Shown here piece by piece: positions 18,129 to 59,775 of a stretch of DNA of 64,000 bases (its first letter is position 1; the number at the start of each line of letters is the position of its first letter). The notes under the pieces are model-generated. The model searched no databases. It saw only the letters and a program-made list of their open reading frames with translations, and was not told where the DNA came from. The translations under genes were made by a program, and so were the position numbers. This stretch comes from an uncultured Helicobacteraceae bacterium (GTDB lineage Bacteria; Campylobacterota; Campylobacteria; Campylobacterales; Helicobacteraceae): NCBI GenBank assembly GCA_947176375.1, contig CAMWQM010000006.1:13531-77530 (forward strand), written 5' to 3'.

Positions 18129-19975
18129 ATGCTAAAACTTGCTTTCAAAAATGTTAATATTTTTGTATTGCTATTTATTTCGTTTTTTGCGATTTTTTGC
18201 TCATTTTGGCTAATAATAAATTATGGAAACATAGATTTTAGTGCGATCATCTTTCATCTTAAAATGCCATATGGTGCGAATAGTTATTTTATAATTAGCT
18301 TTATCTTAGCTAGTATTGTGCCAAGCCTTATGCTTTCTTATTTGTGCTGTTTAAAGCGCATTATGCCTCTTATCATCATATTTGTGGTCTTTACTTTGCT
18401 TGTGGTATTAAAATATAACTATTTGGGCATTGTAGAGCGAATCTATAAAATAAAATTTGCGCTAAATTATAATTTATATCCATATATAGATTATTTGTAT
18501 GTTTTTTGTGGCATTGTAGTGGCGCTTTTGCTTGTATATTTTATGAATAGAAAATTTGGAAAATTTATTTATAAAAGAAGTATTTTGTTTGTTATGATTA
18601 TTTTTGTAGCTTCGCTTTATTCGCTTCATAGGCAATTCGATATAGTTAGATTCTTTACTAGAGATTACTCAAACTTCTATGAGCAAAACTATGTTTTTTA
18701 TGAATTGCCAAATAATTTAGAGGGCTTTAGAGTAGATACTAAAGATTCTATAGATTCCACATTAGAAATTCACATAATCCCACAAACAAAACGAAATCTA
18801 ATCATAATATTTTCTGAATCTATGGAATCTACTTATTCAAATACTGCTAATCTGCTGGAGCCAAATTTAGCAAATGGGGGAGTTGCATAATTTAGAATAT
18901 CCAGATTCCAACTTAAATGTGGAATTAAAAATAGATTCCACAAATGCAGAATCGAAATGGAAACTAAATATAGATTCTAAACTCAAAACTTCCACTTTAA
19001 ATTCCCCTCAAAATCTAGAATCTAATAATTTAGATTCCGCCATAGACTCCACTTTGCAAACAAAAAGGTAAAACAGCCTTTAAATCACTTCAAAATAAAA
19101 CTAATCTAATTCCGAATCTAACTTCTCTAGCAAATAGCCATATAAACTTTAGCACGACAGATTCTTTTGGTGGGATTATACAAGTTAAAAATACCTCTCC
19201 AACAATTGCTGGGACTTCATCTTATATGTGTGGTGTGCCTTTAAATGTTAGGATTGGCAATTATTTTAATATGCAAAATTTTCTATCCTCTGCTTCTTGT
19301 ATTAGTGATATACTGCATAATCTTGGCTATCACCAAATAGCACTTTTAGGATATGATTCTAGATTCGCTGGGTCCGCTGGATTTTTTAGGACGCATCATA
19401 TCAATGCAATCGATTTTCATAATTTCAAAGAAATGCTAAATATAAATAATGATAATCTAAATGATTTTAGTGGTTTTTGGGGGATAAAAGATAGCCTAGT
19501 TTTTGATTATGCAAAGAAATATCTTTCGCATATTGATAGCACAAAGCCTTTTGCACTCTATATTCCGACAGCTGATACATATTTTCCTGAAGGCTATGTG
19601 GATAAAGCTTATTGTAAAGGTCTGGATACCACTTATAATTCTGCAATTAAGTGCAATGATAAAATAATTAGCGATTTTGTCTCTTGGGTGCAGAGGTAGG
19701 ATTTTTATGAAAATACTACAATTGTAATCGTTGGTGACCATTTATCAATGAAACAAAATTATTTTAAAGAAAATGCCCCTAGATTCATTTTCAATATTTT
19801 TATTAATCCATCTTTTAGTAAGAATCCTAGCGCTGATTTGATAAAAAATAGAAAGTTATCTCATTTTGATATAACTGCTTTGATTTTAGATTCACTAAAT
19901 ATTAAGACTAAAGTCTTTGGTTTAGGACGTAATCCTCTTTATCAAAAAAACTTTACTAGAAATTTATGGAGTTGA
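18129..19975 (+). pseudogene. Disrupted sulfatase-family membrane enzyme (OpgB/MdoB- or LtaS-like phosphoglycerol transferase)
   Basis: - The N-terminal TM domain plus LIIIFSESMEST is in frame 0 (18129-18890).
- An LDS/LES-rich insert follows in frame 1 (18874-19071).
- The catalytic domain is in frame 2 (about 19046-19699; TIAGTSSYMCGVPL).
- An in-frame TAG at 19697 is followed by ...TIVIVGDHLS... up to 19975.
- The frame changes fall near a G5 run (18876-18880) and an A5 run (19062-19066). Confidence 0.75.
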
Positions 19976-26574: not shown

Positions 26575-29500
26575 ATGAAAACTTTAGGTTTTGATATAGG
26601 GATTACTAGCATTGGTTGGGCTTTTATAGAAGATGATGAACTTAAAGATTGTGGAGTTAGAATATTTACTAAAGCTGAAAATCCAAAAACAGGAGAATCT
26701 CTATCTTTGCCTAGGAAAGAAGCTAGAGGAGTAAGAAGAAGGTTAGCAAGGAGAAAACAAAGGCTAAATGAACTTAAAAAATTAATTTGTAAAGAATTTG
26801 GATTCAATCTCAAAGATTATTATAGCAATGATGGTGAATTACCCAAAGCCTACCAAACTACTAAAGACACTAAAAGCCCTTATGAGTTGCGTTATTTGGC
26901 ATTGCACCAAAGACTAGAATCTAGTGATTTAGCAAGAGTGATTTTACATATCGCAAAACATCGTGGTTATGGAAATAAACACGCTAAAAATTTAAATTAT
27001 TCTCAAAATGATGAAAATACAGAAATTAATCAAACAGAGGGTAAAAAATCAAAAAGTAAAAAAGATAAGTCTAATGAAGTTAAAAATGCTCTTAAGGTTA
27101 ATAGAAGGCTAGTAAAGAAGTATCAAAGTGTAGGAGAATATCTGTATAAAGAATTTTTTCAAATCCAAAGAAGTGATAATGAAATAATAGAGTCCTTAAA
27201 AGCAAGAGGAGATACAAGTAAAACAAAACAATTTAAAAATGTTCGCAATAAAGCAGGGAAATATGAACATTGTATGGCACAAGAATGGCTAAAAGAAGAA
27301 CTTGAACTAATTTTTACAAAACAACAAGAATTTGGAGTAAATTTAAGTGATACATTTTGTAAAGAGGTTTTAAAAACCGCCTTTTATCAACGTGATTTAA
27401 AAGATTTTAGCTCTAAAGTTGGAGAATGTATATTTTGTAAAGACGAGAAATGTTCCCCTAAAAATTCTCTTAGTGCGATGGAATTTGTAGCCCTTACTAA
27501 AATTATCAATACACTAAAAAATCTAGAAGAAAAGAATAAGAATCTTGGTATTGGTGAAGTATATGGGGAAAATAAAATAGAAGAGATTCTAAAAATCGTG
27601 CTTGATAAGGGTGTGATGAGTTATAAGAAATTGCGTGAGATTCTAGATTTGAATGAGAAAATAAGGTTTAAAGATCATAAACTTGATTATAGCAAGGATA
27701 TAAAAGAAGCTGAAAAGCGAAACTTCATTGAATTTAAAAACCTTAAAGATTTCAAAAATGCAATGGGTGAATATGATTTTAATAATCTATCCTACCGCAA
27801 AGAGCTAGATTCTATAGCAACAGATATTACCCTAATTAAGAGTAAGTATAATCTAGCAGAAAAACTAAAAGATTATCCAACTCTTACACAAAGACAAATA
27901 GAAGCTTTAAGTGAGTTAGATTTTACACAACATATTAATTTAAGCTTAAAAGCTCTAGAAAAGATTCTACCTTTTATGCGAAAAGGAGTTCGATATGATG
28001 AGGCAGTAAAAATGGCAGGGTTGCAAGAGCATAGAAAGCATAATCAAAAGAGTGAATTTTTGCCTCCACTTAAAGATTATGAGCCATATCTAGCAAATCC
28101 AGTAGTTGCAAGAGCACTAAGTGAATATCGCAAGGTGCTAAATGCTCTACTTAAAAAGTATGGGAAAATGCATAAGATTCACTTAGAATTTACACGTGAA
28201 GTGGGTAGAAACTATAAAGAGCGAAAAGAGATTGAAAAAGAGCAGACAAAGAATTTTGAATTAAATCAAAGGGCACAAAAACAATGTGAAATTCTTGGAT
28301 TGCCTCTTAGTAGTTCAAATATACTTAAAGCAAAGCTTTGGATAGAGCAAGGGGAATATTGTGCTTATAGTGGAGAAAAAATTACTAGAGAGCATTTACT
28401 AGATTCTAATGTCTTGCAAATTGACCATATTTACCCCTACTCTCGCAGTTATGATGATAGCTACAATAATAAGGTGCTTTGTTTTACAAAAGAAAATCAA
28501 AATAAGATTAATAAGACACCTTTTGAAGCATTTGGGGATGATAAAGAAAAATGGGATAAAATTCTAGCACTAGCTAGTAAGCTTCCCAAAGCAAAGAAAC
28601 GCAGAATTACAAATACTCAATTTAGCAATAAAGAAGTAGGCTTTATTGCAAGAAACCTAAATGATACAGGATATATTGCAAGATTAGCAAGTGATTGGAC
28701 AGATAATTCATTAAAATTTTTGCCCTTAAGTGAGAATGAGGTAACGATTGCAGGAGAAAAGGGTAGTAAAAAACATATAGAAGTAGTAAGTGGGAGTTTA
28801 ACTTCAATGCTTAGACATTATTGGGGACTTGGAAGTAAAGATAGGGATAATCACCTTCATCACGCAGTAGATGCAATAATTATTGCTTATACTAATGCAA
28901 AAACTATCAAGGCATTTTCAGATTTTAAAAAGACACAAGAGCAAAATAAAGCAAAGTTTTATGCTAAACAAATAGCAGAATCTGAATATAAAAAGCAAAA
29001 AGTGTTTTTTGGGCCCTGCCTTGATTTTAGAAATAAAATTTTAGCAAAAGTAGATTCTCTTTTTGTCTCAAAACCACCACGTAAAAGAGCAAGGGGTGCA
29101 TTGCACAAGGAAACTTTTCATTCCTTTAATGATGAAAAACTACTTAAAGAATATGGTGGCACACAAGGCATACAAAAAGCACTTGAACTAGGTAAAATCC
29201 GGCAAATTGGAACAAAGATTGTGAGTAATGGAGCAATGGTGCGAGTGGATATTTTTAGAGATAAAAAAGGCAAATTCTATGGTGTGCCTATTTATACTAT
29301 GGATTTTGCATTAGGAGTTTTGCCAAATAAGGCAGTAAGAGGTGGTAAAAAAGATGGCGTGATTAAAGATTGGCTTGAGATGGATTCTCAATATGAATTT
29401 TGTTTTAGCCTATTTAAAGATGATTTAATATTAGTTCAAAAAAAGGAAATGGAGAAACCTGAGTTATGTTATTTTGTAAGTTTTGACACTTCAACTGCAA

Positions 29501-29865
29501 GTATTCAGGTTGAAAAACATAATAATAAATTTGAGGGCTTGAGTGAAAATGAAAAATTACTCTACACCAATGCTACATTAAAAGAAGTGATAGGTAAAAG
29601 CATAGGCATACAAAATCTAAAAATCTTTGAAAAATATCAAGTTTCTTCACTAGGTGAGATAAAGAAAAGTATTGTATTTGATAAAGAGTATAATTGCTAT
29701 GTTTTATTTGATAAAAATGAAAATATATTAAAAGATTCTAATGATATTCTCAAAAAGCCTGCAAGAGAGCCTATCTCATTAAAATCAAGCAAAAAGAAAA
29801 CTCTACAAATTTCCACTCAAATACACTCAAACGCACAGCTAAAAGAACTTGATAGAAAAGACTAG
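26575..29865 (+). CDS. cas9: Type II-C CRISPR-associated endonuclease Cas9
   Basis: - 1096 aa.
- RuvC-I is FDIGITSIGWA.
- The arginine-rich bridge helix is RRRLARRKQRL.
- HNH is LQIDHIYPYSRSYDDSYNNKVLCFTKENQNKINKTPFEAFG.
- RuvC-III is HLHHAVDAIIIAY.
- Long stretches are near-identical to C. jejuni Cas9 as I remember it (YQSVGEYLYKE, GKIRQIG..VRVDIF, VPIYTMDFALGVLPNKAV, SIGIQNLKIFEKY). Confidence 0.95.
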   Translation: MKTLGFDIGITSIGWAFIEDDELKDCGVRIFTKAENPKTGESLSLPRKEARGVRRRLARRKQRLNELKKLICKEFGFNLKDYYSNDGELPKAYQTTKDTKSPYELRYLALHQRLESSDLARVILHIAKHRGYGNKHAKNLNYSQNDENTEINQTEGKKSKSKKDKSNEVKNALKVNRRLVKKYQSVGEYLYKEFFQIQRSDNEIIESLKARGDTSKTKQFKNVRNKAGKYEHCMAQEWLKEELELIFTKQQEFGVNLSDTFCKEVLKTAFYQRDLKDFSSKVGECIFCKDEKCSPKNSLSAMEFVALTKIINTLKNLEEKNKNLGIGEVYGENKIEEILKIVLDKGVMSYKKLREILDLNEKIRFKDHKLDYSKDIKEAEKRNFIEFKNLKDFKNAMGEYDFNNLSYRKELDSIATDITLIKSKYNLAEKLKDYPTLTQRQIEALSELDFTQHINLSLKALEKILPFMRKGVRYDEAVKMAGLQEHRKHNQKSEFLPPLKDYEPYLANPVVARALSEYRKVLNALLKKYGKMHKIHLEFTREVGRNYKERKEIEKEQTKNFELNQRAQKQCEILGLPLSSSNILKAKLWIEQGEYCAYSGEKITREHLLDSNVLQIDHIYPYSRSYDDSYNNKVLCFTKENQNKINKTPFEAFGDDKEKWDKILALASKLPKAKKRRITNTQFSNKEVGFIARNLNDTGYIARLASDWTDNSLKFLPLSENEVTIAGEKGSKKHIEVVSGSLTSMLRHYWGLGSKDRDNHLHHAVDAIIIAYTNAKTIKAFSDFKKTQEQNKAKFYAKQIAESEYKKQKVFFGPCLDFRNKILAKVDSLFVSKPPRKRARGALHKETFHSFNDEKLLKEYGGTQGIQKALELGKIRQIGTKIVSNGAMVRVDIFRDKKGKFYGVPIYTMDFALGVLPNKAVRGGKKDGVIKDWLEMDSQYEFCFSLFKDDLILVQKKEMEKPELCYFVSFDTSTASIQVEKHNNKFEGLSENEKLLYTNATLKEVIGKSIGIQNLKIFEKYQVSSLGEIKKSIVFDKEYNCYVLFDKNENILKDSNDILKKPAREPISLKSSKKKTLQISTQIHSNAQLKELDRKD

Positions 29866-29874
29866 GAAAGTAAA

Positions 29875-31230
29875 ATGTTTGATTCTCACTTTAGAACACT
29901 CTTTCTTAGCACACCAGCAAAGCTTAACTTTAAAGATAAAAGATTAATTATTTCTCTAAAAAATGAGCTAGATAATGGAGGAGAAACCACTAGTTATCCT
30001 TTAAATGGAAGCCTAAATAAAGATATAAAATATAAAGCCAAGAGCCCTCATCAAATATTGGAATCTAAAGCTACAATCTCGCATAAAATTAAATTTAATC
30101 CCTCTCTCAAAGCCCTAAATAATGTTCCACATAAATACACTAAAAATACAAATCAAGAAGCAAAAAATACTTATTGTGATACTTATAAAGATGAGATAGC
30201 AATCCCCTTAAGTGATATTTTATGTCTTATTATCGAATCTAGGCAAGTTAGCTTAAGCTCTTATTTGCTAAATGAATTAGCAAAGGAGAAAGTTTTGGTT
30301 TTTGTTTGTGATGAATTTCATTTGCCAAGTGGAATTTTCACTCCATTTTTAGGGCATTATCGCTCTTTAAGTATTTTGCAAAATCAAATCAATTTAAGCA
30401 AGCAAAAGAAAGCTATTCTTTGGCAAAAAATTATCAAGCAAAAAATCTTAAATCAAGCTAATTTGCTAGAATTTATTAAAATCAAAAAAGCTAGTGAATT
30501 GCACAGCCTTGCAAAAAGTGTGCATTTAGGGGATTCTAGTAATAATGAAGCAAAGGCAGCAGCGATTTATTTCCCTGCTTTGTTTCAATCTATTGCAAAT
30601 ATAAAAGGTTTTTCTCGCAAGATTAGTGGCTCTAAAATTTGGCAGGGTGATAGAACTAGCCCTAAAAAGCAGACTGATTTTGAGAGCCAGACTCCTAATA
30701 TCCACACTGATAGTCCTGATAACATAAATCACCCTAAGAATTTCAATTTTGATGATATTAAAAGCCTCCAAAATATAAACCTACAAGATGAGCAAATAGT
30801 GGTTATCAATGCCGCACTAAATTATGGCTATGCGATTGTGCGTGGAATGGTGGTTAGGGCGATTTGCGCAAGTGGACTAAATCCAGCGTTAGGTATCTTT
30901 CATAGTAATCAATTCAATCCCTTTAATCTTGCTGATGATTTGATGGAGCCTTATAGAATCTTTGTAGATTCCCTTGTGGCACAAATGCTAGAAAATAAAG
31001 AATTGCAAGAGAGTTTTAGCATATCAAATCGTGCTAAATTAGCAGAAATTTTAAGTGCAAGTGTGTTATTAAGTGAGGAACAAAAAATCTATCCTTTGCA
31101 TAGAGCGATAATCAAAGGTGTGCAGAGCCTATCTCGCTCTATGAGTGCAGATGTAGAGCTTATTTTGCCTGTATTTGAAGGAGAAAAATCAAATGGAAGA
31201 GAAATTTATGAGAGTGCTAGTGATGTTTGA
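29875..31230 (+). CDS. cas1: CRISPR-associated integrase Cas1, unusually long (two in-frame insertions)
   Basis: 451 aa. The conserved core is present: SNNEAKAAAIYF, INAALNYGYAIVRG, GIFHSNQFNPFNLADDLMEPYR. Extra segments are at about aa 31-106 and aa 250-305. Confidence 0.88.
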   Translation: MFDSHFRTLFLSTPAKLNFKDKRLIISLKNELDNGGETTSYPLNGSLNKDIKYKAKSPHQILESKATISHKIKFNPSLKALNNVPHKYTKNTNQEAKNTYCDTYKDEIAIPLSDILCLIIESRQVSLSSYLLNELAKEKVLVFVCDEFHLPSGIFTPFLGHYRSLSILQNQINLSKQKKAILWQKIIKQKILNQANLLEFIKIKKASELHSLAKSVHLGDSSNNEAKAAAIYFPALFQSIANIKGFSRKISGSKIWQGDRTSPKKQTDFESQTPNIHTDSPDNINHPKNFNFDDIKSLQNINLQDEQIVVINAALNYGYAIVRGMVVRAICASGLNPALGIFHSNQFNPFNLADDLMEPYRIFVDSLVAQMLENKELQESFSISNRAKLAEILSASVLLSEEQKIYPLHRAIIKGVQSLSRSMSADVELILPVFEGEKSNGREIYESASDV

Positions 31231-31516
31231 TATGCCAACAAACACGAAAGAAGATAGGAAAAACTGTATGAAATTCCGCCAAAGTCTCATCAAAGAGGGT
31301 TTTATGATGCTTCAATATAGCGTATATATGAGAATCTGTAAGGGTGTGGCAAATGCAAACTCACATTTAGATAGGCTAGATTTGATTTTACCACCAAAGG
31401 GGCATATAAGGGCATTGCTTTTAACTGAAAGACAATTTGATAATATGCGATTATTGCTAGGAAAAAGAAGTGAATGTGAAAAGTCAAACAAACCCAGACA
31501 GCTTACTTTGTTTTAG
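31193..31516 (+). CDS. cas2: CRISPR-associated endoribonuclease Cas2
   Basis: 107 aa counted from ATG 31193. MEEKFMRVLVMFDMPT is a typical type II Cas2 N-terminus, and a GGAG lies about 9 nt upstream. The gene overlaps the cas1 3' end. The track starts it at TTG 31175. Confidence 0.88.
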   Translation: MEEKFMRVLVMFDMPTNTKEDRKNCMKFRQSLIKEGFMMLQYSVYMRICKGVANANSHLDRLDLILPPKGHIRALLLTERQFDNMRLLLGKRSECEKSNKPRQLTLF

Positions 31517-31546
31517 GTTTTTGTTTTTTAGATTCTATTGTTAAAT
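31510..31546 (+). repeat. Solitary CRISPR-repeat-like 37-mer overlapping the cas2 stop (not a confirmed array)
   Basis: The sequence is GTTTTAGGTTTTTGTTTTTTAGATTCTATTGTTAAAT. It shares the GTTTTAG 5' end, the length and a TGnTAAAT-type 3' end with the C. jejuni type II-C repeat as I recall it. There is only one copy and no second repeat at spacer distance. Confidence 0.25.
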
Positions 31547-32759
31547 TTTAGGCTTTAACAGGGCTAATAAATCTCTAGCTTTGTAAAATATAGCTTTAAA
31601 ATTCTGGGCTTTTAGGTTTAATTTTATGTAGTAATATTCCATAGAAGTGTTTTGAGAACTTTAGAATCTAGATTAATTATTTTTTGTTTTTCATTTTGTT
31701 CTACAAAATGATGTGGATATATGGGAGGAGTTATAGCAAATAAAATGGATGTGTGTAAAACAAAAGTGTAGTTTATTCTTTATTTGTGGGAAAGGCTATA
31801 CTTGTTGATACTTTTAAAAAAGCTAGGAGTGCATTTTAAAGGATTTTAGTATTTAATTCATAAAAATGATGGCAAATTTTTAAGCAACTTTGGAATCAAA
31901 AAAAAAGAATCTAAATAATACTATAATGGTGAAATTAAAATAGATTTTATCAAGATTTTAAGAAGCTACATAGAATTTAAAATATTTAAAATTTCTTTAA
32001 CTTAAACTCTTAGATATGATTTGTGGAATCTAAATATTAATAATCTAACATACTTAAAGCTTTTCAAAAACTGCATAATACTCAAAATAGAAACTAGTAT
32101 GGCAGATTTTGGATAATTAGAGTTTTTAAAATTAGAATCTAAAGGTATCATTTTTAACCCCAATTCTTCTATAGGGGTTCAAAGAAATTATTTTATAGAG
32201 AATTGAGCAAATATTATATTAAATTTAGATAGTTTTCAATATCTATCGCAGATAAAATTAAAATTTGTGTTGAAAATATTCTAAGAATATGCTTTTATGG
32301 TAGTAGAAAATTAAAATTTTATTAATTTGTTAAATAACTAATCTTATTTATTTTAACGAATTTTTATACTAATCAGTTTAAAAATCTTCTTCATAAAGAT
32401 AGTCATTATATGAATTATTTACAATAAAATCTATATATTATTATATTCTTTAAATATAATTATATACACTCTTTATAAAATAACCTAAGAGATGTATATA
32501 TTTATCTACATAATAGACAGCAAAGACTATAAAAGACTATATTTGTTTGAGCTAGTAATTAAAAATCCAAAAAATATTTAATTATGGATGTTTTGTATAT
32601 AAATTTATGATTAGCAAAATACTAATTTCACCAATATTTAAATATTTTTCTTATTAAAAAAGTTGTGTAACTTTGCCATTTTAGCATTTGGATTAATTTA
32701 TTTTTTTGATTAAACTTTCTTTGTTTTTTAAATTTTAACAATAAAACAAAGGATAAAAA

Positions 32760-33256
32760 ATGAAACAAGATATTATGGCTAATGAAAATAGTGATGATGT
32801 AGTAGCCTATCAAAATTCAGGAATTCCTGCTACCTCTAATGAAAATTTAATGTATATTGAGAATGGAGAAGTTAAAAATAAAAAATTTGTAGATAGAACA
32901 CCAGAAGAACAAAGAGAAACTATTAAGAATAAGTTAGCTTATTATTTAAAAAGAACTATTGAAAATGGAACTTCACCACTATTTCAAAAACACTCTAAAG
33001 AATCTTTCCAAGATGAAAAGAATATAGCATTGTTAAAAGCAACTTAAAAGCTTCTAATCTCCTAGCTAAACATAAAAATGGAGGACATACTCTTAGGCAT
33101 TCATTTGCCTCATTAATATATAAGGAATCTAATAATCTTTTATTACTCCAACAGCTACTTGGACATTCCAGTATTGAGATAACTAGAATCTATACTCATT
33201 TAGATGAAAATGCCATAACTAATGCAACTAAATATTTAGATGTGATATGTGAGTAG
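32760..33256 (+). pseudogene. Decayed tyrosine recombinase (phage-type integrase), C-terminal part only
   Basis: A frame-2 fragment at 33017-33256 has no start codon. It reads ...[45 protein letters not shown]..., giving the HxLRH box, LLGH and the catalytic Y. The overlapping 95-aa ORF 32760-33047 (..NGEVKNKKFVDRT..SPLF..) looks like the preceding integrase segment in another frame. Confidence 0.65.
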
Positions 33257-33658
33257 AGTAATGATTAAAAAATAAAATGAATTAGAGTAATGATTTATTT
33301 TAGGTTAAAATTTTTAGTTCTAGATTCTAAATCATTATTAGACTTTACTTTAATATTTAAAGAAGAATCTAATTTATTATTAGATTCTATATTCTCTAAC
33401 TCATTTTCATAAAGTGAGTGTCAAGTCATTATTCATCGCCCTAATATCAATTAGCACTACTTTTTTGGTTGAATGCAGATAGCGTATAAACCCAGAAACT
33501 GATGAGCCTGCATCATAGTGAATTTTGGCTTATTTTTAGCATTTTTCTTGCTCCCAAAATATCTTGAATAAAATATAAGCTATCTATTTGTTCATTCTGT
33601 GCGATTTTTATTGGTTTATTTTGAGATATAAATTAAATTGTTGCTATAAAATGTATTT

Positions 33659-34315
33659 CTAAAGCGATTGTATGAATTTTACAGCTTTAAGTGAATCTAA
33701 AAAAATATTATTACTAAATTGTTCTAGATCTGCTCTTTTGCCATATCCACAGAGGATTCCAATGCCTTGAATATCAGCATTTTTAGCAGCTTGCAAATCT
33801 AGTATCGTATCGCCGATCATAAAAGATTTGTTTTTATCTATCTTTATATTTTTAGATTCCATTATCATCAAAGCATTTATTATCGGTTCTTTGTGAGGCT
33901 TTGTATGCACCACATCTTCCCTGCCAATCATAACGCTAAAATATTTTTCCACTTCAAAGTGTTGTAATAGTTCTCTTGAGGAGTGACTTGTTTTTGTTGT
34001 TACGATTCCTAGATTTGCAAATTTACTTGCTAGTTTTATGGATTCTGCTGCATTTGGAAGCATAGTCGTTTTAGCCCTATGTATCGTTGTGTAATGTCTT
34101 TTATAGTCATTGCAACACACCTCAATCAAATCACTACTCACGCCAAAAAATCTAAACATATCTTGCAGAGTGTAACCTATAAATTTTGTAATTTTATTTT
34201 TTGGAAGAAGTGGTATTTTGTGTTTCTTAAATACATTTAAAAAGCTCTCATAGATTGCATCTGTGGAATCTATTAAAGTGCCATCCATATCAAACAAAAT
34301 GATTTTATCTTTCAA
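33659..34315 (-). CDS. HAD-superfamily phosphatase (phosphoglycolate phosphatase-like)
   Basis: 218 aa with motif I FDMDGTLIDS, motif II VTTK and motif IV GDTILD. Confidence 0.85.
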   Translation of the reverse strand: MKDKIILFDMDGTLIDSTDAIYESFLNVFKKHKIPLLPKNKITKFIGYTLQDMFRFFGVSSDLIEVCCNDYKRHYTTIHRAKTTMLPNAAESIKLASKFANLGIVTTKTSHSSRELLQHFEVEKYFSVMIGREDVVHTKPHKEPIINALMIMESKNIKIDKNKSFMIGDTILDLQAAKNADIQGIGILCGYGKRADLEQFSNNIFLDSLKAVKFIQSL

Positions 34316-35710: not shown

Positions 35711-37303
35711 CTATCGCTTTAGTGTAATATCTTCTCCCGGATTGCCTTCTGAAAAATTCACATTTTGTAATCTCAATTTCAGGTCTGAAGGTGAAGTGGC
35801 CTTTTCCATAGCCACATCTTCTGTAACTATATTATTTGTGATTAATTCAAATAGATGCTGGTCGAATGTCTGTGTCTGGTAGATTCCTTTTCCTTCTGCT
35901 AATGCTTCTAAAATTTCTCCATCTCTACCTTCGTCTATGATTAGTTCGATTCTAGGGGTTCTAAATAGTATTTCTATTGCTGCTGTTCGTTTTCCATCAA
36001 CCGTTTTTAATAGTCTTTGAGAAATAATGGAGTTTAGTATGCTTGAGAGAGTTTTTCTAATTCTATATTGGTCTGTTGGTGGAAATACTGAAATAATCCT
36101 ATTTATAGTCTCTTTGGCATCGAGTGTATGTAATGTTGATAGCACTAAATGCCCTGTTTCTGCAGCGTGAAGTGCCATTTCTATTGTTTCAATATCTCTC
36201 ATCTCACCTACTAGAATAATATCTGGGTCTTCACGCAGTGCTGCTTTTAGTGCATTTGCAAAGCTATTCGTATCCATTCCAACACTTCTCTGATTTATCA
36301 TACTCTTTGCATCTTTATGCACGAATTCTATCGGGTCTTCAATGGTTATGATATGCTTTGCGTGTTTATGGTTTATTTCATTTATGATTGCTGCTAGTGT
36401 GGTTGATTTACCAGAACCTGTGATACCTGTAACAAGCACTAACCCACGCTCCATATCTACTATTTTATTGATTGCTTCAGGTAATCCTAGCCCTTGTATA
36501 GTATTTTGTGTTGTAGGAATGGTTCTAAATGCGAATGACACTCCTTCCATTTGAAAAAATATATTTACCCTAAATCTTGTTGTAGCATCATAGATATAAG
36601 TCATATCCATCTCTTTATTTATTGCTAATTCTTGGAATCTAGTCCTTGTTAGCTCTTTTGCAAATGTTATTGCTTCATCTTTTGTAAAAATGTCATTACT
36701 AAATATTACAATATCACCCCTAACTCTAGCACGAATATGGGAGTTTGCCTTTAAATGTAAGTCGCTCCCACCCACACTAATTAGCTTTTTTAAATAACCT
36801 CTAACTTTTTTTGTTATGGCAAAATCAAGCTTATCTACATCAACTACTAACGAGTTGGTGTTTTGATTTGTGTTTGACTTTTTATTAATCGTTTGTTCAG
36901 CTAAAAAAGCAGATTTTATGTCGTTGTGTATAGATTTGTTGTAATTATGTATGTTTTGGTCTGGTATATTTATTTTAGATTTTGGTGAGTTTGGCTGTGA
37001 TTTTGTTTGTATTGTGTTTATAGGTTTTATTAGTTTCCCTTGATGTGCATTTAAGTTTGCTTGATCTGATTTTTGGCCAATATTTGGAGTAACTGGTGTG
37101 AATCTGTTAGATGAAGTCACTGATTGCGACGTAGCCATCTTCTTTGTAGAGATGTGCGTTGAAATATTATTTGTTATATTTGTGTTTGCTGTGTCCTGTG
37201 CATTTCTATTTGTCATAACTGGTTTAGCATTAGCTAATACATCAATAGTATTTATTTTAGGGGTAGTTTTCATTTGTGTGTTTAACCCAATATTTGTTTC
37301 CAT
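35711..37303 (-). CDS. PilT/PilU-like type IV pilus retraction-family ATPase with long low-complexity N-terminal extension
   Basis: 530 aa. Walker A GITGSGKSTT, Asp box EDPIEF, Walker B ILVGEMRD and His box TGHLVLSTLHT are present, with a PilT-like tail RTPRIELIIDEG. The first ~170 aa are Asn/Thr/Gln-rich. Confidence 0.82.
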   Translation of the reverse strand: METNIGLNTQMKTTPKINTIDVLANAKPVMTNRNAQDTANTNITNNISTHISTKKMATSQSVTSSNRFTPVTPNIGQKSDQANLNAHQGKLIKPINTIQTKSQPNSPKSKINIPDQNIHNYNKSIHNDIKSAFLAEQTINKKSNTNQNTNSLVVDVDKLDFAITKKVRGYLKKLISVGGSDLHLKANSHIRARVRGDIVIFSNDIFTKDEAITFAKELTRTRFQELAINKEMDMTYIYDATTRFRVNIFFQMEGVSFAFRTIPTTQNTIQGLGLPEAINKIVDMERGLVLVTGITGSGKSTTLAAIINEINHKHAKHIITIEDPIEFVHKDAKSMINQRSVGMDTNSFANALKAALREDPDIILVGEMRDIETIEMALHAAETGHLVLSTLHTLDAKETINRIISVFPPTDQYRIRKTLSSILNSIISQRLLKTVDGKRTAAIEILFRTPRIELIIDEGRDGEILEALAEGKGIYQTQTFDQHLFELITNNIVTEDVAMEKATSPSDLKLRLQNVNFSEGNPGEDITLKR

Positions 37304-37442: not shown

Positions 37443-37865
37443 ATGAAAAAAGCTGGATTTACTATGATAGAGCTTGTTTTTGTTGTTGTAATATTGGGAG
37501 TCTTGAGTGCAGTTGCAGTTCCTAGATTTTTATTAAGTCGAGAAGATGCTTGCTACGCTAAGTTAAGAGCTGATTTATCCGAAACACAAACAGTGCTAAC
37601 GAGAGAATATACAAAACGTTTTATGCAGGGTAAAAGTCTGACTAATGATGAATTAAGGGATATTTTGAAATCTACATTAATTTCAAATAGTAGCGATAGA
37701 TGTGAATTTCAGTATGTAGATACCACTAAAGTGAATGCACTAGTTAATAAAAACTTATTATCATTTCATATTCAGACTGATTCTATTACAAAATCACCTA
37801 CAATAACTTGTGATTTACAAAATGATATGTGTAAAAGATTAACAGGCAAAAAAACTACAAACTAA
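37443..37865 (+). CDS. Prepilin-type N-terminal cleavage/methylation domain protein (type IV pilin/pseudopilin-like)
   Basis: 140 aa. MKKAGFTMIELVFVVVILGVLSAVAVPRF is a class III signal (G/FTMIE). The gene is divergent from the PilT-like gene. Confidence 0.8.
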   Translation: MKKAGFTMIELVFVVVILGVLSAVAVPRFLLSREDACYAKLRADLSETQTVLTREYTKRFMQGKSLTNDELRDILKSTLISNSSDRCEFQYVDTTKVNALVNKNLLSFHIQTDSITKSPTITCDLQNDMCKRLTGKKTTN

Positions 37866-37879
37866 CATAAACTAAGCAT

Positions 37880-37904
37880 TATAGAATCTAATATTTAGAT
37901 TCTA
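37880..37904. repeat. Perfect 11-bp inverted repeat built from two TAGAWTCTA motif copies (possible hairpin or terminator after the pilin gene)
   Basis: The sequence is ATAGAATCTAA-TAT-TTAGATTCTAT, 15 nt after the pilin-like stop. No T-run follows, so terminator function is uncertain. Confidence 0.5.
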
Positions 37905-46474: not shown

Positions 46475-46639
46475 TTTTTAGATTTGGGTAAGAAAATTCA
46501 TAGCCTTTGGAATAGATACCATTTTATGAAAGCCCAGATTTTTGGGGTTTGGCTAGGACTAATCCTATTTAAAATCTAGATTCTAGCCATATTTTAGAAT
46601 CTATAAAATCACTAAAATTAGATTCTAAAATTTTTAATG

Positions 46640-47368: not shown

Positions 47369-47839
47369 TTTCTAAACTCCTATCAAAAAATTTACTAATT
47401 TTAAAACAGCAATTCTATATTTGTTTTTATAAAATAAAGATAAATATTTAAGAATATATTTTTAATAAATCCTTATTAAAGCCCATAAAATAGCTATAAT
47501 CCAAGTGGTAAATCTAATAAATAAACTTAAATTTTTTAAAGATTACTACTAAATATTAAAGCAATATGTGAAGTAGTAATAGATTTGCTAATAATTTTAA
47601 AATTTTTAATTTGAAAGTTTTTATATGAATATTTTGTTAGAATCATTTTTTATGAGGTTTTATGATTTTTAAGCAAGACATAAGCTAAAGAATCTAGCAA
47701 GTTAGACTCTAAAATTTTAATTTTATTTTAAATCCAGCTTCAAACACTTTAATGCAGAATCTTGCATATTTGAGATTCTAAATTTACTAGATTCTGCTTT
47801 TTGGATTCAAAAGTTGCAAATATTTTTAAAATTTTAAAA

Positions 47840-50617: not shown

Positions 50618-52911
50618 ATGCTCTTTAGTTCTTTTATTTTTATCTTTGCATTTTTACCTTTGATGTTTGTTGTATTTCATATTCTAAAATACTTTTCATT
50701 TTATAAAAGTGCTAAAATCTCTCTTGTTTTAGGAAGTCTATTTTTCTATTCTTTTTGGAAACTTTCTTATCTTCCAATTCTGCTTAGCTCAATTATCATA
50801 AATTATTTTCTAGCTTTAATGATTACTAGATATGGGGGGGGGAATCGCATATTTTAGAATCTAATTTAGATTCTAAATCAAATACACTTTCTAAAAGTTT
50901 AGTTTCCACTTCTATACATTTTATTTCAAACTCTAAATTAATGCCATTTAAACTTACATCATCTCTAACTCCAAAGGCTTTTCTAATTCTAGGCATTATA
51001 TTTAATCTTGCTTTATTAGGTTTCTTTAAATATACAGATTTCTTTTTATCAAATGTTAATACTATCTTTAATATTATAAATCTAGATTTTAATATTACAT
51101 TGCCTCATATTATGCTTCCTCTTGCTATTTCATTTTTTACATTTCAACAGATTGCTTTTCTAGTAGATTGCTATAAACAAAGAAAAGATAGCACTAAAAG
51201 TTTAGAAACTAAAACAGAATCCACTTTGAATATAAAAAATACTAATTTAAATGAAGTTTTAGAATGTGAAGATTCTATTATTAAACACAAGAAAGAATCT
51301 AATTTAATTTTAGATTCTAAAGATTCCCAATCTCTAAATATAAATACTACAATAGAATCTAAAACTTTTAATTATAATGCAAGCATAAATCCTAATATTC
51401 CTAATAATCAAGCTAAAGTCATAAAATATTCCGCTCCTCTAGACTTTCTTGATTATTGTTTATTTGTTTGTTTCTTTCCACAACTTATTGCTGGTCCAAT
51501 AGTGCATCATAAAGAGATGATGCCACAATTTAATAATTTGCAAAATAAAAGAAAAGATAAAAAATTGAATTTAGATTCCAAAGTAAATGCGGAAATTAAA
51601 AAGGAAAATGAAAGTTTAGAAGCTAAATTAAATAAATCAAATGTGGATTCTAAATTAGATTCCACTCTAAACATAGAATCTAACAGCATCAATTTAATAA
51701 ATCACAACAAACAATATTTAGATTCTAAAGTTGAATCTAATTCTATCCCAAATCAAATAAATCAAAATAAAACATCCTTTTTAGATTACAAACTTATTGC
51801 TAAAGGATTGTTTATCTTTAGTATAGGATTATTTAAAAAGGTATTCATAGCAGATTCATTTGCTAAATGGGCTAATAAAGGATTTGAGGCAGTAGAGAAC
51901 GGAATTGTGCTAAATGTTGTAGAATCGTGGGCTACATCATTATCTTATACTTATCAACTCTATTTTGATTTTAGCGGATATTGTGATATGGCAATAGGAT
52001 TAGGACTTCTATTTGGAATCGTGCTGCCTATTAATTTTTATTCTCCTTATAAAGCATTAAATATTACTATATTCTGGAGGAAATGGCATATAACTTTAGG
52101 AAGATTCCTAAAAGACTATATCTATATCCCACTAGGAGGCAATAAAAATAGCATTAATAAAATAAAAAATAATATTCTAACTTTAAGAAGCCTCTTTCTT
52201 GTAGCATTCATTAGTGGAATCTGGCACGGAGCAGGATGGGGCTTTATTATCTGGGGGACAATGCATGGAATTGCTATGGTAATTCATAGAGCTTATAGGT
52301 TTATTATAGATTATTTTTTACAAAAAGAGGAGAATAGAAAGAAAGAAGATAATAAATATTTAAAAACTATAATGGAATGTAAATCAAATTTAGATTCCAA
52401 AGTAGAATTAGAATCTACGAATAATATAAATATTCAAAGTTTAGATTCTAAATCTAATTTAGCTTTAGATTCCAATCACAATAAATTTAATAGCTTCCAT
52501 AGATTTACTAGATTCTCATTAAAAAGCTTTTTAGATTCTACATTCTATAAAGTGATTTGCTTTATTATTACTTTTAATTTTATAAATATTGCGTGGATAT
52601 TCTTTAGAAGTGAGAATGTAAGTGGAGCAATCAATCTTTTAAGAGGAATGTTTGGGGTAGAGTGGGTCGATTTGCCGCTAAAGTGGTGGAGAATGCCAGA
52701 AACTTTAAAGACAATTGAAGGTAGAAATGAAACTATAATTTATATCATCCTAGCTTTTGTAGTATGTTTATGGATTAGGAATAGTTGGGAGATGGCTAGA
52801 GCTTTTAGTGGTAGAGTATGGGAGGTTGTGCTATTTGCTGTTTTTATTCAAATTTCATTTAGTTGTATGCAAGATGCAACAATACAAGAATTTATATATT
52901 TTAACTTTTAG
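50618..52911 (+). CDS. MBOAT-family O-acyltransferase (AlgI/DltB/PatA-like), frameshifted at a poly-G tract in this sequence and carrying LDS-rich inserts
   Basis: - ORF 50618-50857 encodes the MBOAT N-terminus (MLFSSFIFIFAFLPL...).
- ORF 50941-52911, whose frame is open from 50843, encodes the rest: ISFFTFQQIAFLVDCY, FFPQLIAGPI, WRKWHITLGRFLKDYIYIPLGG and the conserved His in SGIWHGAGW.
- The two frames differ by one nucleotide at G9 (50834-50842). Confidence 0.85.
50834..50842 (+). repeat. Homopolymeric G9 tract (candidate phase-variation switch)
   Basis: The sequence is tatGGGGGGGGGaatc. With G9 the frame stops at TAG 50855. Adding one G (G10), or removing two (G7), would fuse the N-terminal ORF to the downstream MBOAT frame. 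Confidence 0.8.
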
Positions 52912-52919
52912 GATAAGTT

Positions 52920-54023
52920 ATGTTTAAAATCACAATGTTGATTCATAATATTTTATCTAAACGAATAGATTTTAAAGTGTGGATTATACTTGGCTTTTTG
53001 TCGAATATGTTTATGATTGGTGTATTGTGTTTTAATATTTTTATTGACCCATATTTGCTTTTTTCACATAATACTCGTTTTAATATTCTAAGCTATGGGA
53101 GTAATGAGCGACAAGAAAAAACAAATAGAATCTACTTTAATAATAATAAAGATTATAATGCTATTTTGCTTGGTAGTTCTCGTGCTACTTTTGTAAATCA
53201 ATATGAATTTAAAGGAATGAGGCTATACAACTATGCTGTTTCATCAATGATGCCATTTGAATATAAATTTTATATTGATTTTATGAAGCAATCACTAAAT
53301 AAAGATCTTGATTATATAATTTTACAAATTGATTTTTTTGGTTCAAATGTTCCTAGTGAAAAGATATTAAAAGAACAAGACCCTGTTCAATTTATAAATA
53401 CCACTACGCAGCCTTTTTATCGCTTAAGAGCATACTTTTCACTACAAACATTTAAAAAATATAGTTTAGTAGTATTAAAAGAATCATTAGGTTTTACACA
53501 GCCATTTTATCATTCTTACTATTTTAGAAATAATGTTAAAATTCGTAAAAAAGCTACAGAAGAGCAGAGAGCTAAAGATTTTAACTTTCATCTAAAAAGG
53601 CATACCAAAGAGTTAAGCGATTCATATTATAAATTTAATGAAAATTTAATAATGATTTTACAAACAATCAAACAAGAAAATAAAAATTCGCAATTTATTG
53701 TCTATACTTCGCCAATAACAGCTAATTTACTGGCTTCCATTATTCGTAATGCTAATAGATGGGAGGAATATAAACAATGGCTAAAGATGCATATTGAAGT
53801 TTTTGGTAGTGTATGGCAATTTATGGGGATAAATTCTATCACAACAAATTTAAATAACTACCCTGATGATGACCATTTATACCCTGAAATATGCACTTTA
53901 ATGGCACACAAAATTACAAACTATCAAATTGATAAGATTCCACAAGACTTTGGAATCTTGCTTACAAAAGACAATATCGATGAATATTTAGAGAATCTAG
54001 CAGATGAAATTGCAAAATATTAG
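52920..54023 (+). CDS. MBOAT-partner protein, DltD/DUF1574-like (single N-terminal TM, extracytoplasmic acyl-transfer/esterase-like)
   Basis: 367 aa with one TM helix and then LLGSSRA, a Ser-containing motif typical of DltD-like partners. It starts 9 nt after the MBOAT stop. Confidence 0.55.
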   Translation: MFKITMLIHNILSKRIDFKVWIILGFLSNMFMIGVLCFNIFIDPYLLFSHNTRFNILSYGSNERQEKTNRIYFNNNKDYNAILLGSSRATFVNQYEFKGMRLYNYAVSSMMPFEYKFYIDFMKQSLNKDLDYIILQIDFFGSNVPSEKILKEQDPVQFINTTTQPFYRLRAYFSLQTFKKYSLVVLKESLGFTQPFYHSYYFRNNVKIRKKATEEQRAKDFNFHLKRHTKELSDSYYKFNENLIMILQTIKQENKNSQFIVYTSPITANLLASIIRNANRWEEYKQWLKMHIEVFGSVWQFMGINSITTNLNNYPDDDHLYPEICTLMAHKITNYQIDKIPQDFGILLTKDNIDEYLENLADEIAKY

Positions 54024-56689: not shown

Positions 56690-57874
56690 TTAAGATTCTA
56701 CTTCATAACCCATTTTTTTAAGCTCTTTTTTGCTCCTGCTCCAGCCTTTTTTAACAACCACATTTAGTTTTAAAAATAGCTTTTTAGCACAAAATTCCTC
56801 AATACTCTTTCGTGCGCTAATGCCGATATTTTTGATACTTCTGCCACCACTGCCAACTAAAATAATTTGCTGACTTTTTTTCTCCACTATAATGTCTGCG
56901 TAAATTTCATTGATGGTTTCTTTTTCCCTAAAACTCTTAATAACTACATCACTTTGATATGGCACTTCCTTGTTAGAGTATTTAAAAACTGCCTCTCTAA
57001 TCTTTTCTCTGCAAATTTCTTTAAGATTCTGTGTGCTAATAAGCTCTGTATCATAGAGATATGGGGAATTTGGTAAATATTTACTAATTTCTTTTAATAA
57101 AACTTCCAAATTTAGCCCCTTAAAACAAGATAGCGGAATAAGCTCCTTATAGTTGTCCTTAAAAGCTTCATATTGCTTGATTTTTGTAAATACTTCATTT
57201 TTGCTTACTAAATCAATCTTGCTTAAAATTAAAATATGGGGCTTATTGCTTAAATTTAAAAAGTCTTTATAGTGCTTAATATCATCTGTAATTGGCGCTA
57301 GAAACGCTACTAAATCGCAGTTTTCAATCGCCCTCAACGTCTCTTTTAGCATAAATTGATTTAGTAGCTTTTCCCTCTCGTGAATCCCGGGCGTATCAAT
57401 GAAAATAATTTGAGTTTTATCGTGCATTACTATGATATTCATTTGCTTTCTAGTAGCATTAATTTTGTGCGAAGTCATTGCAATATTTTCATTTATAATA
57501 GCATTTAATAATGTGCTTTTGCCCGCATTTGGACGCCCAACTATCGCTATAAATCCAGCTTTTGTGAAATCTTTAGAATCTGTAGAATATTTCTCAGGAT
57601 TCTGCGTTACATTTTTAGAATCCAAAGTATTTGCTCTTAAATCTCTTTGTTTGGAAGCTTTTTGAGCAAGATTCTGCATTTTAGTTTTCTGCTTTAGATT
57701 CTCCTTTTCTTGTAATTTAGAGGCTCTTTTAGAATCTATATTTTGCTTTTTAGATTCTCCTTTTAAAGTAGCATTATTTGAGGCTTTATTAAACTTATAA
57801 TCTTTTTTAGATTCCAAATTCTTATTATTAGATTTTGCATTTTTGTTTGAGCTAGATTCCATTTTGGATTCCAC
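56690..57874 (-). CDS. era: GTPase Era with ~100-aa repeat-derived N-terminal extension
   Basis: G1 GRPNAGKSTLLN, G3 DTPGIH, G4 SKIDL and a C-terminal KH domain are present. The ORF is open up to GTG 57874, 2 nt after the hslU stop. No start codon lies within 22 codons upstream of the G domain. Confidence 0.88.
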   Translation of the reverse strand: MESKMESSSNKNAKSNNKNLESKKDYKFNKASNNATLKGESKKQNIDSKRASKLQEKENLKQKTKMQNLAQKASKQRDLRANTLDSKNVTQNPEKYSTDSKDFTKAGFIAIVGRPNAGKSTLLNAIINENIAMTSHKINATRKQMNIIVMHDKTQIIFIDTPGIHEREKLLNQFMLKETLRAIENCDLVAFLAPITDDIKHYKDFLNLSNKPHILILSKIDLVSKNEVFTKIKQYEAFKDNYKELIPLSCFKGLNLEVLLKEISKYLPNSPYLYDTELISTQNLKEICREKIREAVFKYSNKEVPYQSDVVIKSFREKETINEIYADIIVEKKSQQIILVGSGGRSIKNIGISARKSIEEFCAKKLFLKLNVVVKKGWSRSKKELKKMGYEVES

Positions 57875-59711: not shown

Positions 59712-59775
59712 ATTTCCCCTTTATTCTACAAAATTTATTTGTGTAGATTCTATACTTAAATTTTAGAATCTAGTC

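Follow-up and report, generated by a model that had tools for sequence, protein, structure and literature searches.

Loop inserts in a Helicobacteraceae MBOAT acyltransferase are probably low-complexity expansions saturated by a genome-wide DNA word rather than copies of a transposed element

Low-complexity insertions in proteins of AT-rich genomes are Asn/Lys/Ser-rich and probably disordered, lie in loops or termini, and are lineage-specific and variable in length. Rickettsia palindromic elements (RPEs), on the other hand, are discrete units of approximately 100-150 bp that share a consensus and have the potential to form hairpins, and PatA, an O-acyltransferase of the MBOAT family, uses a C-terminal tyrosine motif (PMC12148441). 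Here we describe an MBOAT gene in a 64,000-nt stretch (30% GC) from an uncultured Helicobacteraceae bacterium (contig CAMWQM010000006.1, positions 13,531 to 77,530), which as a whole is called the window below. Its product carries four long in-frame blocks packed with the word tAGAWTCTa (W = A or T), which an earlier note on this DNA took for members of one dispersed, RPE-like repeat family. We consider it probable that the blocks are unconstrained low-complexity loop expansions saturated by a genome-wide word, and not transposed copies of an element.

The product matched the Pfam profile PF03062 (MBOAT) with E=3e-35 and the PDB profile of DltB with 1e-24. Its AlphaFold2 (AF2) model, with a predicted local distance difference test score (pLDDT) of 71, led with Foldseek to DltB (6bug_C, TMt 0.60). 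The catalytic histidine of the WHG motif (His537) and Y761 in the C-terminal tyrosine motif FIYFNF are invariant in 80 sequences and intact in this protein, and the orthologue alignment confirmed that the invariant MBOAT residues are all kept. The closest relative showed 55% identity over half the protein. Read through, the gene encodes 764 aa, compared with 497-501 aa (approximately 499) in Campylobacter orthologues, and matches to the gene across other, distant phyla span approximately 1440-1500 nt (approximately 480-500 codons). The protein is thus indeed longer than usual for its family, as had been suspected, although the earlier estimate of 180-200 extra residues was too low and an excess of approximately 265-270 aa over the orthologues was found.

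Alignment with 13 and then with 79 orthologues placed this excess at the four proposed blocks and, in addition, at a small fifth site in the GGN loop (Table 1), the boundaries being known only to a few codons. The segments are absent from Campylobacter and from several Helicobacter orthologues. The earlier note had regarded homologous segments of equal length in orthologues as evidence against insertion; in Campylobacter the loops are far shorter. Across 80 orthologues the five loops have lengths of 0-90, 7-133, 11-158, 8-100 and 14-149 aa, with a content unrelated between lineages, and the GGN loop reaches up to 100 aa in other Helicobacter orthologues. Because lengths from 0 to 158 aa with unrelated sequences occur across Helicobacter orthologues, the five loops can be regarded, as far as the alignment tells, as general insertion-tolerant sites of this MBOAT protein.

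Frame 0 of the blocks holds no stop in 295 codons, compared with 42 and 46 stops in the other two forward frames, and therefore the insert segments have been kept translatable. In being inserted in frame, preserving the ORF (open reading frame) and missing from orthologues, the blocks behave like RPE-type insertions. Ser, Asn, Lys and Leu together account for 54% of the 295 insert residues, and in the structure prediction proposed as a check the inserts lie between the conserved helices as coil or as helix extensions of low confidence, with stretches of pLDDT below 50 (Table 1). The inserts are lineage-specific, low-complexity and probably disordered expansions. Insert 1 would be cytoplasmic only if the N-out topology of PatA (PMC12148441) and three spanning helices hold. 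The palindromic nature of the word also leaves one reverse frame of the blocks with few stops (9, compared with 34 and 40 in the remaining reverse frames); a 61-aa antisense ORF inside insert 3 (51507-51692, minus strand) is probably not a gene.

Table 1. Coordinates of the features in the window, with motif content, DNA fold z-score and low-confidence residues of the model where available.
Feature	Position	Strand	Description and basis	GAWTC copies (per kb)	Fold z	pLDDT <50 (residues)
MBOAT (AlgI/PatA/DltB-type) O-acyltransferase gene	50618-52911	+	764 aa if the G tract is G10; Pfam, orthologue alignments, AF2 model			
Poly-G tract (G9)	50834-50842	+	Putative phase-variation switch, OFF in the assembly; frame test by tract length, orthologous loci			
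Insert 1	50842-50973	+	44 aa, loop after helix 3, after GGG; 1-5 aa in Campylobacter orthologues; contains dyad TTTAGAATCTAATTTAGATTCTAAA at 50853-50877 with 11-bp hairpin	3 (22.7)	-3.8	77-105 (coil)
Insert 2	51181-51435	+	Between DCYKQ and LDFLDYCLF; ~74 aa excess; loop 89 aa vs 14-16 in Campylobacter	6 (23.5)	-0.17	223-270
Insert 3	51532-51789	+	Between MMPQF and IAKGLFIFS; ~76 aa excess; loop 89 aa vs 11-16 in Campylobacter	6 (23.3)	-0.71	344-385
Small GGN-loop addition	52144-52173	+	~6 aa; loop 14 aa vs 8 in Campylobacter; no motif copy			
Insert 4	52297-52536	+	Between HRAY (HRxY) and FYKVICF; ~69 aa excess; loop 83 aa vs 14 in Campylobacter	6 (25)	-1.69	
Partner gene	52920-54023	+	Conserved, 367 aa, directly downstream of the MBOAT gene; without Pfam or NCBIfam match			
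Linker in phosphoglycerol-transferase/sulfatase-type gene	18874-19071	+		6 (30.3)		
Era GTPase N-terminal extension	57566-57874 (gene 56690-57874)	-	103 aa, low-complexity, word-saturated			

The inserts contain GAWTC at 23.7/kb, compared with 3.5/kb in the rest of the MBOAT gene, 5.3/kb in the window and approximately 1.9/kb expected from base composition, so that the description of the blocks as packed with TAGAWTCTA-type repeats was correct. Of the 52 TAGAWTCTA copies in the window, nine are located within the four blocks, which together measure 885 nt, and TTAGATTCYAAA occurs 10 times in the window (0.17 expected), with 7 of the 10 copies in the MBOAT gene. All 21 GAWTC sites of the blocks are in the GAW-TCN phase and read Asp/Glu-Ser. 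Dipeptides of the form [DE]S were counted 21 times in the inserts (5.3±2.0 in amino-acid shuffles) and the four-residue pattern [LIV][DE]S[KNT] 14 times (0.39 in shuffles), in agreement with the LDSK/LESN-type translation that had been noticed from the letters. As both counts exceed those of amino-acid shuffles, the enrichment lies in the order of the residues and not only in their composition. The peptides themselves may be explained by the word: on both strands its extended form places a TAG in one frame and a TAA in a second, and because these close the other frames it persists in coding DNA in one frame only, which reads Leu/Ile/Val-Asp/Glu-Ser-Lys/Asn and hence gives LDSK/LESN.

What had been seen as a dispersed repeat family turned out to be this word of 7-13 nt (core AGATTC), which is present in every gene of the window and in the spacers. 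K-mer analysis gave 267 copies of AGATTC (52 expected), 147 of AGAWTCT (21 expected) and the 52 of TAGAWTCTA mentioned above (1.7-2.6 expected), corresponding to a 5-20-fold over-representation and to approximately 0.8/kb for the 9-mer; the preferred extensions are TAGAWTCTA, AGATTCCAC and AGATTCTGC. It was found in all 44 ORFs, some of which lack either of two extended forms, with GAWTC at 4.9/kb in ORFs and 6.4/kb in spacers, and its sites are spaced nearly at random. AGATTC occurs 131 times on the plus and 136 times on the minus strand and thus shows no strand bias, although the window is skewed both in GC (+0.094) and in gene orientation (31:13); an oriented signal of the Chi/KOPS type was rejected on account of the missing strand bias despite this skew. 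The related GASTC (S = C or G) is depleted to 0.25 of expectation, and GATCC is strongly depleted as well. No mention of the word was found in the bacterial literature searched. Side observations on its arrangement are an inverted pair GCAGAATCT...AGATTCTGC followed by TTTTT at 47755-47805, in the spacer downstream of htpG, and word-bearing dyads at 37882-37904 (after the gene of a pilin-like protein), 46577-46627 and 59744-59772.

Codon usage allowed us to ask at which level the bias acts. GAWTC is enriched in all three codon phases (119/67/65). Outside the MBOAT gene, Ser following GAT or GAA is encoded by TCN in 67-68% of cases compared with 49% overall, and Phe following AGA by TTC in 42% compared with 12% overall. 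Synonymous codon choice is therefore bent towards the word, indicating that the bias acts on DNA. These data also bear on a function at the peptide level, according to which selection would act on L-D/E-S-K/N, as a short linear motif or as a polar and flexible linker, and would produce the DNA word only incidentally. In its favour, the four-residue pattern exceeds its shuffle expectation by far, similar peptides recur in Era and in the linker of a sulfatase-type gene, and the word is denser in low-complexity coding segments than it is in spacers. Enrichment in the spacers and in every codon phase, the choice of synonymous codons that create the word, and its enrichment, whatever the gene, in genomes with 30-46% GC all argue against such a selection, which we consider very unlikely.

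Similar DNA had also been proposed for the sulfatase gene, and this was confirmed as a saturation of its linker with the motif (Table 1), where all six GAWTC sites are in the D/E-S phase. The two 26-mers compared in this context, near 51640 and near 18927, both exist and are identical at 22 of their 26 positions; the pair was not among the BLASTN matches at E<=1e-3. The phosphoglycerol-transferase/sulfatase-type gene (18129-19699) is itself split into at least three ORFs with the word-saturated linker as break region, and it may be a pseudogene or reflect sequencing errors. The Era GTPase provides the same contrast within one protein: its profile matches in full at residues 104-390, and the preceding extension has 32.4 GAWTC/kb compared with 3.4/kb in the conserved core. 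From the extension and the linker it follows that non-conserved coding segments of this genome are in general saturated with the word.

If the four blocks were copies of one element, they should resemble each other beyond the word. Unmasked block-to-block scores had z-values of 1.6 to 5.9, which reflect only the word; after masking of 11 nt around every GAWTC, the blocks were as similar to each other as codon shuffles are (z -0.9 to 2.0). The blocks thus share nothing once the word is masked, and a lack of relation beyond composition is what the earlier note itself had named as speaking against a repeat family. BLASTN led to matches of 24-27 nt only, repeat finding together with BLASTN gave units of 12-27 nt, and a discrete unit of 50-150 bp with a shared consensus, as in RPEs or miniature inverted-repeat transposable elements (MITEs), was not detected in the blocks. 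At the insert boundaries no target-site duplication was found, the longest shared words having 5-8 nt and a fraction of 0.13-0.92 of the shuffles being as good. Internal repeats above codon-shuffle expectation were absent from the blocks, masked or unmasked. A search for hairpins or terminal inverted repeats showed no fold excess for inserts 2-4, and only the 25-nt dyad of insert 1 was significant. We also considered the motif dyads as a discrete small element and rejected this, as the sites are spaced barely tighter than random and the four orientations are about equally common; PARCEL repeats (PMC2996958) were dismissed as an unrelated kind of palindromic coding repeat. What remains of the RPE-like family are blocks that are real, in frame, lineage-specific and located between conserved MBOAT segments, with a motif that occurs in other genes too; a family of discrete elements is not supported, given the nil masked similarity and the lack of target-site duplications and internal repeats.

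The word is shared with related bacteria. It was enriched in six of the loci compared (L002, L004, L006, L007, L084 and L163, among them H. turcicus and two Helicobacter metagenome-assembled genomes), and L164 and L003 (H. zhangjianzhongii), both of them short contigs, showed a GAWTC excess as well. The word-enriched Helicobacter genomes span 30-46% GC, and the most striking case was L163 from an uncultured Helicobacter with 46% GC (AGAWTCT 54 versus 5.4, TAGAWTCTA 15 versus 0.4). No enrichment was found in L165, L083, H. brantae, H. pylori and the Campylobacter loci, with depletion in the last two. GAWTC concentrates in the loop inserts of the orthologous MBOAT gene in L002 and most clearly in L163, and many copies lie there in L164 too; the MBOAT gene of L165 has no GAWTC, and this genome is without the word.

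The MBOAT gene of L163 carries a unit of approximately 120 nt (119 nt) in loops 2 and 3 (L163:10766-10884 and L163:11306-11424; 85% identity), which forms a long hairpin when folded (z -6.8 and -8.2) and has the termini GATTC...GAATC. A word-index protein search with the 43-aa module gave no match. Exhaustive HMMER search found the 45-aa translation in 57 protein clusters, whose families are unrelated (GT2, GT1, GT8, ankyrin, ATP-sulfurylase, AMP-binding proteins and DNA methylases), and the named clusters belong to Helicobacter canis or uncultured Helicobacter. Judged by these sequence features, the unit represents genuine RPE-like behaviour in the MBOAT loops, and it appears to be undescribed in the literature searched. 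Further copies of the module were not found within ±10 kb of the L163 and L165 orthologues. Two observations were made on L164, namely a 49-nt repeat with 94% identity in loops 3 and 4 (L164:1481-1529 and 2261-2309) and, at L164:1614-1654, a perfect 41-nt palindrome ATTGCCACGATTCCAC...GTGGAATCGTGGCAAT containing the variant GATTCCAC of the word.

Real elements of this kind sit in the MBOAT loops of other species (L163 and L164), and each block of the window could likewise be one or two decayed palindromic copies of an RPE- or MITE-like mobile coding element inserted in frame. The block lengths of 132, 255, 258 and 240 nt, which are near one or two times approximately 125 nt, would fit, as would the hairpin module with its word-like termini in two loops of L163, its peptide in the many unrelated families including H. 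canis glycosyltransferases, and the repeat shared by two loops of L164. The module of the L163/H. canis type is absent from the window, however, as neither a profile of the module nor nhmmer gave a match there. Moreover, the blocks share nothing with the word masked and show no target-site duplications, inserts 2-4 have fold z-values of only -0.2 to -1.7, and a near-random spread of the word through all genes cannot be produced by a handful of copies. We therefore regard a mobile element as an improbable origin of the blocks. A more far-reaching possibility is that tAGAWTCTa is an actively driven signal of an enterohepatic Helicobacter clade, uptake-like or a target of recombination or insertion, with unconstrained coding loops (those of the MBOAT protein, the Era extension and the sulfatase-type linker) as sinks and a single machinery that both enriches the word and inserts in-frame DNA across the genus. 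This is suggested by the word also forming the termini of the 120-nt hairpin element of L163, and it is put forward here as a tentative and rather doubtful idea.

Insert 1 directly follows the poly-G tract, which is out of frame in the assembly. The frame test by tract length showed that G10 or G7 joins two ORFs into one 764-aa frame, whereas with G8, G9 or G11 translation ends after 5-8 codons at the TAG/TAA of the first motif copies; the OFF variants terminate this early because the non-functional frames run into the first motif dyad, and both of these frames past the tract (50834-50877) were seen to stop in its TAG and TAA. At or near the matching site, eleven loci examined in orthologues carry tracts of G8-G15 (H. 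turcicus, H. brantae, H. zhangjianzhongii and Campylobacter concisus are among them), and the GGG at this site is conserved in the protein alignment. A homopolymer that sets the frame, is conserved and varies in length among relatives is the hallmark of a phase-variable contingency gene, and from its sequence the tract would be a conserved phase-variation switch and not a sign of decay. The alternative, a dead, frameshifted MBOAT pseudogene with blocks of junk, could point to the frame disruption that G9 causes in the assembled sequence. Yet 691 open codons follow downstream in a genome of 30% GC, the blocks have 0 stops where the other frames have 42-46, the invariant MBOAT residues are all retained, and the conservation of the tract at G8-G15 in orthologues is typical of a reversible switch. 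A decaying gene is thus extremely unlikely.

How the loops obtained their extra length is a separate question. According to the explanation that we favour, unconstrained low-complexity expansion, the permissive loops of a contingency gene would have grown by unconstrained but translatable filler, probably by many small insertions and deletions and not in one event. A genome-wide drive at the DNA level, caused for example by biased DNA uptake or by a sequence-specific protein, would then have loaded the filler with tAGAWTCTa until the word dominates the peptide. In protein segments that can vary freely, the density attained is about one word per 10-13 codons, compared with approximately 3-4/kb in conserved cores. 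Growth by slippage is another route, in which motif-bearing units of 9-30 nt were duplicated in tandem and then diverged, the density of the word being inherited from the seed. Consistent with it are a 12-nt unit present twice at 50853-50876 (Tandem Repeats Finder) together with short arrays of 9-10 nt, three motif copies spaced exactly 30 nt in insert 4 of L002, and native loop ends with a likeness to the word (the alignment pairs FLDST of this protein with FLNSK of C. jejuni, and LDY with IDW). As internal repeats do not exceed codon-shuffle expectation in any block, and as the decay of old duplicates should have decayed the word too unless it was maintained separately, we consider slippage or duplication unlikely.

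Some observations weigh against unconstrained expansion under a word-loading drive as the whole explanation. Spacers have only 6.4 GAWTC/kb compared with 24-32/kb in coding low-complexity segments, and freedom from constraint alone is therefore insufficient; a further factor is required, for which a preference at the peptide level, duplications of old date and recombination mediated by the word are candidates. The 30-nt spacing in L002 hints at local duplication. Inserts 3 and 4 have 18 nt in common (AATTTAGATTCCAAAGTA), and a 27-nt dyad, AAGAATCTAATTTAnTnTTAGATTCTA, occurs with 93% identity in insert 2 (51293-51319) and at 33363-33389. The latter site, in a stretch without ORFs of at least 100 codons, is the longest match of the MBOAT gene to the rest of the window. 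Furthermore, a same-species relative in which the inserts could be polymorphic was not present in the genome and metagenome collections scanned.

Regarding the neighbourhood, a gene of 346-385 aa without Pfam match follows the MBOAT gene also in L002, L163 and L165, and next after the partner gene in the window lies a gene for a Csd6-type peptidoglycan carboxypeptidase. Elsewhere in the window a CjCas9-type cas9 was found with cas1 and cas2 (26575-31516); in the approximately 2 kb downstream of these genes (31400-33700), which are without ORFs of at least 100 codons, no CRISPR-like direct repeats were detected. An ATPase of type II/IV secretion (T2SSE-type; 35711-37303, minus strand) lies beside a small protein that carries the N-methylation motif of pilins (37443-37865, plus strand), and the two may belong to a competence apparatus of the Cts type.

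For annotation, these results mean that in this lineage a short word of the whole genome moulds the protein sequence in weakly constrained regions; LDSK/LESN-type filler is to be expected in conserved proteins and should be taken neither for domains nor for pseudogene decay. The five loops of PatA/AlgI-type MBOATs, a membrane enzyme family of medical interest, take up to approximately 150 extra residues in many Helicobacter lineages and thus form a natural map of insertion tolerance. The sharing of the word between species, its strand symmetry and its density of approximately 0.8/kb raise the testable question of its driver, and if the word is indeed an uptake or insertion signal, this would be of high interest. 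The coding hairpin repeat of approximately 120 nt, found in an uncultured Helicobacter and in proteins of H. canis, shows that RPE-like elements also exist outside Rickettsia and Coxiella.

Compared with the PatA, AlgI and DltB pairs of an MBOAT protein and its partner (PMC12148441, PMC3517862), the locus has the MBOAT fold, the catalytic histidine, the C-terminal tyrosine motif and an adjacent partner gene in common. It differs in an MBOAT protein that is approximately 270 aa longer and poly-G-switched, and in a partner without an SGNH signature recognisable by the tools applied. With RPEs and in-frame coding repeats of the MITE type, such as the MITEs of Coxiella (PMC5896051), it shares extra in-frame segments in surface or loop positions, orthologues without these segments, and related DNA outside genes as well; in contrast to RPEs, the MBOAT blocks share only a word of 7-13 nt, and three of the four are without fold excess. 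The word itself resembles DNA uptake sequences, i.e. the uptake signal sequence (USS) of Haemophilus and the DNA uptake sequence (DUS) of Neisseria (PMC3458573, PMC3630211), as a short word over-represented approximately 20-fold or more, at about 0.8/kb for the 9-mer, equal on both strands, scattered in coding DNA, giving few characteristic peptides and common to related species. The features typical of USS and DUS were all observed, as the word is over-represented, symmetric between the strands and common to related species, and the T2SSE-type ATPase and the pilin-like protein of the window fit the idea, although they are suggestive only. tAGAWTCTa differs from USS and DUS in being AT-rich and palindromic, and its likeness to them is one of word statistics. 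We know of no uptake sequence in Helicobacter, and to our knowledge uptake sequences have not been reported to saturate low-complexity protein inserts. With the low-complexity insertions of AT-rich genomes the inserts share Asn/Lys/Ser-rich, lineage-specific and length-variable segments in loops and termini, from which they differ in being built on one ordered word at 16 times its compositional expectation and not on homopolymer or simple codon runs. The MBOAT inserts thus combine low-complexity loop insertion with an uptake-sequence-like loading of a DNA word.

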